Positions 6,001 to 7,625 of a stretch of 7,625 bases of DNA are shown piece by piece. Location of the stretch: positions 1 through 7,625 of IMG/VR virus record IMGVR_UViG_2778261660_000014, one strand, 5' to 3'. Numbering within the stretch: position 1 is the stretch's first letter; the number at the start of each line of letters is the position of its first letter. Origin of the DNA: a virus. Its lineage: Duplodnaviria; Heunggongvirae; Uroviricota; Caudoviricetes. The position numbers are program-made.

Positions 6001-7625
6001 TTCTGGTCTGGGCAATCCGTTGGTGGTGATATGAACCGTGTTCTGTGTGTGGTTATCATTGTCCTGCTGGTGGCCTGTGGTGCGCTTAGTCTGGGGCTGA
6101 ATCATTACCGTGATCACGCCATCATCTACAAAGAGCAGCGCGATAAAAAAGCCAGTGAGCTGGAGCTGGCGAACGCGACAATTACTGATATGCAGATACG
6201 CCAGCGTGATGTCGCTGCACTTGATGCCAGATACTCGAGGGAATTAGCCGATGCGAGAGCTGAAAATGAAACTCTGCGTGCTGATGTTGCCGCTGGTCGT
6301 AAGCGCCTGCGGATCAACGCCACCTGCTCCGGTACCGTGCGTGAAGCCACCGGCACCTCCGGCGTGGATAATGCAACCGGCCCCCGACTGGCAGACACCG
6401 CTGAACGGGATTATTTCATCCTCAGAGAACGGCTGATGGCAATGCAGAAGCAACTGGAAGGAGCACAGGAATATATCCGTACCCAGTGTATACCGTGATG
6501 TTTTGTTATGAAGGTGTTACTGGTAACGTTAAGGTAATTTAACAAAGAGTCAGTTCCGGACTTTATAGTGTGCTCAGTTCATGGCCAAAAACGATTTCTG
6601 TGATAAATATTTTGAATATTATTTACAGGTAAATGGAGTGGGGCACATGGATAGAAATATTACAATAGAGAATGAAGTATATGCCCGTATTGTATGGGCA
6701 GAGAAGGCAAAAACACGGTAATTCCGTGTGTTGCCATGATACCTGATTGGCAGAATAGTTGTTTGGTTTTGAGTATATAGTCAGCGTTTTTTGTTCAGTA
6801 ATTGCTCCCTCAAAAAATAATAAAATAAGGTGATTATTTTTGTTTATTATTTAGTTTTTTTTGTGTGTTGTTTTATTGTTTTTGCGTGGTTTGTTTTTTA
6901 TTGTTATTTCATTAAGGGAAGGTAAATTCAGGATGGCAGTCTGTAGATAATCGGAGGTCACTTATGCTACATGATCACGTGGCAGAATGTCTGGAGAAAA
7001 AAGGACTGTACCGGAGAGCAGCTGAACGATGGGCAAAAGTGATGGTACAGCTAAGTGATGACCAGAAAAGAAAAGTGGCGGCACAGAAACGAGCAGAGTG
7101 TTTGCGTAAGGCGCGCCGGACTCCGGTTTCACCGGTGAACCTGACCGAAATAAAACAAGCGGTCAACAGACTACATTCTGAGTTGGGAATGGGATTTGAA
7201 GAGCGGCGGGTATTCCGACGATATAAAGGGACAGGAGAACAGAATACGTCCGGAAACGCGCGGTCAAAAAAATGCTAAAAAATATCTGAGAGCGTTATTG
7301 CCTGTTACCATAAGAAAAAGCGACTTTAGTGGTCGCTTTTTGTGTCATATATAAGTCGTTTAAGTAAACCTGTCTGAACAGGTGCTCTGGTCGTGTTTGT
7401 CTTTGTTGGGTACAAATTGAGCATGTTTTTCATTAATTAATCTTCTTCTGCAGGCTTCAATAACCCACGCTGAAAAATTACCTGAACCTTTCTGATCAAG
7501 AGCGATGTTAATTTGTTCAATCATTTGGTTAGGAAAGCGGATGTTGCGGGTTGTTGTTCTGCGGGTTCTGTTCTTCGTTGACATGAGGTTGCCCCGTATT
7601 CAGTGTCGCTGATTTGTATTGTCTG

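Follow-up and report, generated by a model that had tools for sequence, protein, structure and literature searches.

We analysed a window of 7,625 nt, namely positions 1 to 7,625 of the IMG/VR record IMGVR_UViG_2778261660_000014 (Caudoviricetes), which constitutes the late region of a lambda-like Shiga toxin 2 (Stx2) prophage. At its right end, two genes converge. On the plus strand, positions 6964–7278 encode a PerC-family protein of 104 amino acids (aa; Pfam PF06069, E 3.8e-44), whereas on the minus strand positions 7360–7584 hold a gene of the ylcI/ynfO family (DUF3950), with 74 codons and a stop, hereafter ylcI. This open reading frame (ORF) starts with ATG, ends with TAA at 7360–7362, carries the motif N36-F37-S38 and is preceded by a Shine-Dalgarno-like GGGG at 7592–7595, 7 nt ahead of the ATG. 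The 81-nt gap between the two stop codons holds a symmetric hairpin readable on both strands (7315–7341), which may act as an intrinsic terminator in both directions, for perC as well as for ylcI. With the remaining bases (7585–7625, minus strand) the ylcI 5′ leader begins; the promoter as well as a Fur box, cosQ and cosN are situated past the window end. A first-pass annotation made from the DNA alone had described this minus-strand ORF with its NFS motif, its convergence on a PerC-like gene and its membership in the YlcI/DUF3950 family, and all three were borne out. Building on this, we propose that ylcI probably encodes a small dimeric DNA-binding protein of the ribbon-helix-helix (RHH) type, a repressor expressed in the lysogen from a gene antisense to the late operon.

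Searches with hidden Markov models placed the protein firmly in its family. It matched Pfam PF13132 (DUF3950) over residues 21–49 with 70.6 bits (E 9.7e-20; gathering cut-off 25 bits) and NCBIfam NF041551 (YlcI_YnfO_N) with 35.6 bits, above the cut-off of 30 bits. It also matched phrog_949, a PHROG without assigned function (E 1.7e-32), and RefSeq labels the identical protein WP_001299328.1 as “YlcI/YnfO family protein”. Copies 100% identical to positions 6900–7625 occur in many complete E. coli genomes, where the pair is labelled “PerC family transcriptional regulator” and “YlcI/YnfO family protein”. Of 5426 complete E. coli genomes, 4171 have at least some match to this stretch, and one genome may have as many as 13 such places. 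RefSeq thus already annotates the gene, names its family and shows it beside the terminase gene. The family is known and the finding routine; it adds little to the existing annotation and leaves the first-pass interpretation essentially correct.

The conserved part of the gene comprises codons 1–49 (7438–7584, minus strand), a probable RHH domain. Among 25 distinct alleles of these codons from lambda-like loci, the ratio of nonsynonymous to synonymous polymorphism (pN/pS) was 0.085 in the ylcI frame, compared with 0.45–4.4 in the other five frames, and variable sites numbered 7, 6 and 23 at the first, second and third codon positions, respectively. Hence, ylcI is a real gene with a core under strong purifying selection at the protein level. 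One could suppose instead that a cis-acting DNA element near cos accounts for the conservation and that the ORF yields no functional protein, since DNA identity to lambda is about 95% over the N-terminal coding part and on through to cosN, and the ORF is unannotated in the RefSeq lambda record. However, the accumulation of substitutions at third codon positions contradicts this idea, the low pN/pS is confined to the ylcI frame, and the pattern IRFP...NFSAWV.EAC is kept at about 35–40% identity in unrelated DNA contexts, which makes a mere DNA element scarcely credible.

The C-terminal tail (codons 50–74, 7363–7437, minus strand) behaves differently. Within the group of 74-aa alleles its pN/pS was about 2, from few sites; other ylcI alleles carry unrelated tails giving total lengths of 64, 66 or 77 aa; and its predicted local distance difference test (pLDDT) values in AlphaFold were 56–66. 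The tail is therefore probably unconstrained and disordered once the second helix ends. Compared with lambda, residues 1–49 differ by D30E alone despite drift of the coding DNA, and the DNA alignment collapses just past codon 49. The tail found here belongs to the perC-linked mosaic variant only: it was accompanied by a convergent perC in 56/56 loci, and the hairpin lay 18 nt past the ylcI stop in 55 of the 57 fetched loci with a 74-aa-type tail, the two others being frameshifted or running off the contig end. Because perC and the hairpin always accompany this tail, the three make up a single mosaic block that is attached to the conserved core. The 25-residue tail would then be a by-product of the joint with the perC block, and the functional protein is probably the core of about 49–56 residues.

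For the fold of this core, RHH is the most likely assignment. The core starts with a basic arm at the N terminus, followed by a putative beta-strand (R13-N-I-R-F-P18), helix A (about residues 19–32), a G-S-G-N turn and helix B (about 37–56), which extends past codon 49 into the tail. AlphaFold models (pLDDT 67 for the full-length and 72 for the trimmed protein) gave an extended N-terminal segment, a helix at 19–32, a short turn and a helix at 39–56. Structure prediction thus returned the two helices expected after an extended segment, but DSSP called no strand on the monomer model and no structural match was significant. Aligned against the Arc family profile with hhalign, KTttKnIRFPheLIEqI fell on KMPQFNLRWPKEVLDLV (pairwise E 0.0017, probability 15%); with the profile as well as with a single Arc sequence, KTttKnIRFP stood opposite KMPQFNLRWP and NIRFP opposite NLRWP. 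In this register, Asn14 and Arg16 of ylcI fall on Arc Asn11 and Arg13, which are base-contacting residues. A PDB profile search aligned one CopG-family RHH protein at helix B (FSaWVieACrrrL), with FSAWVIEAC on LSALVAEAL (E 0.75), and the HicB-like phrog_497 was matched at E 0.0075. Foldseek with the trimmed model found nothing significant (best E 0.68); judged from target names, most of the top 50 (roughly three quarters) were RHH proteins, among them Arc, NikR, CopG, ParD, HicB, MazE9, TacA, NikA, PrpA, CdbA and TCP domains. The sequence itself shows the RHH signature, with weak statistics: alternating polar and hydrophobic strand residues, a Ser/Thr/Asn N-cap and a hydrophobic heptad in helix B. 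Several searches yielded little or nothing: the structure search with the full-length model and the direct PDB sequence search were empty, hhalign against single CopG and ParD sequences was uninformative, and in a lenient Pfam scan only one of 24 family members touched an RHH model (RHH_6, E 0.09). The separate lines are each weak, yet all agree in register. The RHH-like pattern seen at first pass is accordingly backed by the Arc register, the predicted helices and the Foldseek list, without amounting to proof.

The hairpin, AAAAAGCGAC-TTTAGTG-GTCGCTTTTT, has the form A5-GCGAC-loop-GTCGC-T5, in which a run of five A opens and a run of five T closes the structure, and lies 36 nt past the perC stop and 18 nt past the ylcI stop. 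Fold energies on the two strands were −14.7 and −11.9 kcal/mol (z −4.2 and −3.9). It is the sole perfect stem of at least 10 bp with a loop of 3–9 nt in the window, compared with 0.053 such stems per window in simulated sequences (12 of 300 simulations had any). A consensus terminator scan of the window did not list it, presumably because the stem was extended through the A and T runs and left no T tail to score; when the scan criteria were applied by hand, the hairpin fell within them, with a 5-bp stem, four G-C pairs, a 7-nt loop and six T in the next eight bases. Downstream of both convergent stops (7278 and 7360), each strand thus presents a stem-loop followed by a U-run, the layout of a bidirectional intrinsic terminator. 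The symmetric structure had been placed at 7316–7341 in the first-pass annotation and said to serve both genes; it is real, non-random and one base wider, but its service to both needs qualification. By established lambda biology, late transcription must cross the hairpin on its way to the terminase and head genes, so on the plus strand it should stop only transcripts that are not antiterminated by Q. Accordingly worded, the model is that the hairpin would end the ylcI transcript and those perC transcripts made by unmodified RNA polymerase, while Q-modified late transcription would read through to cos and the terminase genes.

The stretch before perC (6750–6960) is very A+T-rich and rich in T-runs, with 26–29% G+C, and perC, this lead-in and the hairpin together resemble a moron-like unit. 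The perC gene may encode a prophage-borne PerC homologue (Pch), a group that we take to be activators of the LEE (locus of enterocyte effacement) island.

Beyond the window, the neighbourhood of ylcI is that of a lambda cos site. Over its last 176 bases, the window has 95.5% identity to lambda 48169–48344. In E. coli CFSAN004176, which carries an identical copy of 6900–7625, the sequence runs on into GGGTCCTTTCCGG...CAGGTTACG / GGGCGGCGACCTCGCGGGTTTTCGCTATTTATGAAAATTTTCCGG. The first part of this extension corresponds nearly base for base to the extreme right end of the lambda record and the second part is, we take it, the lambda left end, so that the pair represents cosQ/cosN. Where the stretch recurs unchanged, about 211 bp separate the ylcI start codon from cosQ/cosN upstream of it, and in CFSAN004176 a gene annotated as “terminase small subunit” (Nu1-type, terS) starts about 395 bp from the ATG in divergent orientation. 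The annotated small terminase gene that had been expected past 7625 is therefore present in CFSAN004176, and the proposed boundary between a lysis/moron module and a head/terminase module is confirmed by the order of cosQ/cosN and then the small terminase gene directly beyond. The same layout exists in E. coli K-12 at ylcI/nohD (prophage DLP12) and ynfO/nohA (prophage Qin), with a divergent Nu1-type terS about 390 bp off; the identical copy shares this K-12-type position, divergent from a Nu1-type terS and next to cos. Among 80 viral loci, all those with the exact cosN 12-mer, which are most of the lambda-like ones, have it 208–219 bp upstream of the ATG.

Lambda itself encodes a 64-aa homologue (RefSeq NC_001416, complement 48109–48303; 1710–1904 of our lambda locus L003), which is intact and unannotated there, is annotated in some other Lambdavirus records, and contributes its first 49 codons to the allele set under purifying selection. 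The ylcI core is encoded in only 155 of 50,697 phage records, nearly all of them lambda or lambda-like E. coli phages, and in every lambda-type cos phage sampled it is part of the conserved block next to cos. The YlcI/YnfO family is a constant element at the right end of such genomes, including that of lambda. In 3 of 91 viral loci (upstream variant u5), a wholly different sequence that lacks cos precedes the core, which points to prophages with rearrangements or deletions. A 37-codon ORF between cosQ and ylcI (lambda L003 1920–2033, minus strand), which some phage records list as a hypothetical protein and certain database entries merge with ylcI, was rejected as a gene, as it shows no coding constraint (pN/pS 0.74).

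Between ylcI and terS, adjoining cosQ, we identified a candidate Fur box, the palindrome ATGATAAT-N-ATTATCAT, with 16 of 19 consensus positions, about 150 bp ahead of the ylcI ATG and about 235 bp ahead of terS. It is common to this prophage type (L002 8835–8853, about 110–128 bases past the window end), lambda (L003 2048–2066) and the K-12 prophages DLP12 and Qin (L169 4096–4114 and L170 3595–3613). Chen et al. (2007; PMC2189734) showed by gel shift that Fur binds the nohA site and listed the nohB site among the strongest predicted clusters. The assignment of this site to nohA/nohB may predate the annotation of ynfO and ylcI, and judged by its position in the shared control region it could equally regulate the latter. 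With regard to transcription, ExcludonFinder (PMC12288877) lists ybcW–ylcI as a convergent overlapping transcript pair in K-12, which indicates that the DLP12 copy of ylcI is transcribed in a cell without late transcription. In that allele the convergent transcripts overlap, and its downstream DNA differs from that of the 74-aa variant studied here.

Taken as a working model, a weak promoter of its own would drive ylcI in the lysogen or early in infection, in the manner of a moron, while the late operon is silent; this timing is inferred from the fact that strong late transcription from pR′ opposes the antisense gene. The protein would act through residues 1–49 or so, in which a Lys/Arg/Thr-rich arm leads into the beta-strand R13-N-I-R-F-P18 and two helices. 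In the dimer, the twin strands would pair and insert into the major groove of DNA, where Asn14 and Arg16 would be placed as Arc Asn11 and Arg13. The protein would most likely repress its own gene, at the control region that separates the gene from cosQ, possibly in concert with Fur.

Several points weigh against this proposal. None of the RHH matches is significant alone (hhalign probability 15%, Foldseek E at least 0.68, one of 24 members in the Pfam RHH scan). Within the hairpin the G+C stem spans just 5 bp, and the invariance of the hairpin between loci leaves it without support from covariation. A promoter scan of the ylcI strand upstream of the gene found no consensus sigma-70 promoter; the same scan returned just a plus-strand GTGACA-16-TATCAT, which overlaps the Fur box. 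Operator-like repeats sought upstream of ylcI gave nothing convincing, and a CGTCA-N12-TGACG pair considered as an operator was dropped as it is not conserved in a variant allele. Finally, the searchable literature mentions YlcI, YnfO and DUF3950 in gene lists and tables only, with no functional study, in agreement with the first-pass remark that the function of YlcI-like proteins is not known.

The wider family is small and bears on what else the protein might do. A scan of 1.84 billion representative proteins yielded 113 relatives only, which retain the IRFP...NFSAWV.EAC pattern down to about 35–40% identity. In other Enterobacterales, the DUF3950 gene resides mostly in satellites resembling phage-inducible chromosomal islands (PICIs) or P4, usually antisense to its neighbours; among the downstream neighbours at 38 loci, it converges on alpA (11 hits) and integrase (9 hits), with primase genes upstream. 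A search for lambda-type cosN near these distant homologues found none; therefore, the cos linkage is specific to the lambda-type subfamily. Two relatives, P0217 and P0190, are complete ORFs in which DUF3950 is fused to positions 1–53 of the 141 positions of Terminase_2, presumably its DNA-binding N-terminal domain, with both domains above the Pfam cut-offs. The fusion genes (L005 6001–6363 and L004 4714–5103, respectively) lie antisense between alpA/int and the primase operon of PICI-like satellites and adjoin a second, stand-alone DUF3950 gene.

Database copies of the family need some care. Assemblies attributed to genera such as Colwellia, Kitasatospora, Cohnella, Pseudomonas and Staphylococcus contain a lambda-type YlcI (93% identity), carried by contigs about 3.5 kb or 48.5 kb long (L089–L125, L133 and L138, besides many ENA contigs of 3.4–3.6 kb). 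Such copies look like lambda control or spike-in DNA contaminating the assemblies, and error-laden versions, frameshifted “proteins” of 80–126 aa, inflate the family in databases.

These relatives invite the idea of a role in packaging, in which the protein binds near cos or the small terminase and modulates cos cleavage; possible variants are that it protects the cos of the resident prophage, excludes other lambda-like phages or counters satellites. Its fixed place in lambda-like phages, about 211 bp from cosN and divergent from terS, would suit such a role, as would the two fusions to the N-terminal DNA-binding part of Terminase_2 and an HK97-like prophage (locus L005) whose DUF3950 gene is likewise antisense, between the lysis genes and HNH/Terminase_2, just before the latter. 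There is even a precedent in TerI, a 65-aa antisense terminase inhibitor expressed in the lysogen (bioRxiv 10.1101/2025.02.27.640495). TerI is not homologous, however, and the ylcI protein contains no terminase domain in a Pfam scan and has no defence-system match in PADLOC. The majority of the distant homologues sit in PICI/P4-like satellites at the alpA/int–primase position with no terminase or lambda-type cosN nearby, and the synteny with cos could merely reflect high DNA conservation of the whole right end. We consider a packaging role, the chief alternative to the repressor, unlikely. Combining elements of both ideas, YlcI/YnfO proteins might be lysogen-expressed, possibly iron- or Fur-responsive RHH factors at the cos–terminase junction that control who cuts and packages at the resident cos, be it the helper, a superinfecting phage or a satellite. 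This seems quite unlikely as well; speaking for it are the strict cos linkage, the relatives in control regions of PICI-like satellites and the two fusions to TerS DNA-binding domains.

The weak similarity to RHH antitoxins, HicB-like (phrog_497, E 0.0075) and of the ParD/TacA type, could also mark ylcI as an orphan antitoxin or the remnant of a toxin-antitoxin system, and in Qin the gene after ynfO, in the same orientation, is ydfO (DUF1398). In the window, though, no co-oriented partner gene exists, as ylcI converges with perC on one side and diverges from cos/terS on the other; a DUF1398 gene is lacking here and, in DLP12, does not adjoin ylcI; and the tail, normally the toxin-neutralising part, is unconstrained and swapped between alleles. 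An antitoxin origin is very improbable, and the lysogen-expressed RHH repressor remains the reading that we favour.

The remainder of the window fits the Stx2 prophage. Three tRNA genes (Met-CAT, Arg-TCG and Arg-TCT; 231–482) lie directly 5′ of two ORFs (573–1532 and 1544–1813) which matching phage records assign to Shiga toxin 2 subunits A and B; tRNA genes just before the Stx2 genes are the usual arrangement in Stx phages. A 645-aa ORF (2300–4237) matches a SASA family carbohydrate esterase in a RefSeq phage record, and the ORFs at 4942–5157, 5162–5695 and 5974–6498 correspond in matching records to lysis protein S, lysozyme and an Rz-like spanin. In most records of Stx2a-converting phages, the match to the window ends at about 6476–6488, and therefore the perC–ylcI–cos segment marks a module junction. 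This prophage thus joins an Stx2a late region to a lambda-like packaging module, with a perC–ylcI–cos segment of lambda type.

Of modest value beyond this prophage is that lambda carries a well-constrained, unannotated copy about 200 bp from cos, which makes the family testable in the best-understood phage system, and that the constrained unit is a 49-residue core alone, Arc-like in look. The shared control region contains a site bound by Fur in vitro and historically given to nohA/nohB, which may just as well regulate ylcI/ynfO. Satellite relatives occupy the int/alpA–primase junction, some of them fused to a TerS DNA-binding domain. Any of these leads could reveal the function of a protein that about three quarters of the complete E. 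coli genomes encode.

Among known systems, the closest are K-12 YlcI (DLP12) and YnfO (Qin), which belong to the same Pfam and NCBIfam family and are almost identical to ylcI over the first 49 residues. They share the position antisense to the lysis genes, with a Fur box and cos remnants between the gene and nohD or nohA, and differ in tails giving 64 and 77 aa instead of 74 and in lacking a perC partner; in other loci, the A5/T5 hairpin was not found after alleles with K-12-type tails. The lambda 64-aa ORF agrees with ylcI in codons 1–49 (D30E only), the upstream leader, cosQ, cosN and the distance to cosN, but has another tail past codon 49 and downstream DNA without perC and without this hairpin. 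The lambda morons bor and lom (own promoter, gene and terminator, expressed in the prophage) are, like ylcI, small accessory units in the late region, and bor is likewise transcribed against the late operon and ends at a hairpin resembling an intrinsic terminator. In contrast to the cos-proximally conserved core of ylcI, a predicted DNA-binding protein, bor is limited to some phages and encodes an envelope protein. TerI of Listeria phage phi10403S has about 65 aa, is encoded antisense inside the lytic module and is transcribed in lysogeny, as proposed for ylcI; it differs in sequence, in its place in the early module, in not being RHH as far as described and in an anti-terminase activity that was shown experimentally. 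Arc and Mnt of phage P22 (MetJ/Arc superfamily) are found in the immI region, with known operators, whereas ylcI is found at the cos-proximal end; moreover, Pfam Arc is not matched by ylcI, which has a longer inter-helix loop and a basic N-terminal arm. In common, Arc/Mnt and ylcI are phage-encoded proteins of similarly small size with the order strand-helix-helix, as predicted for ylcI, an N-x-R-aromatic-P motif in the strand, and a Ser N-cap followed by the same kind of hydrophobic pattern in helix B.

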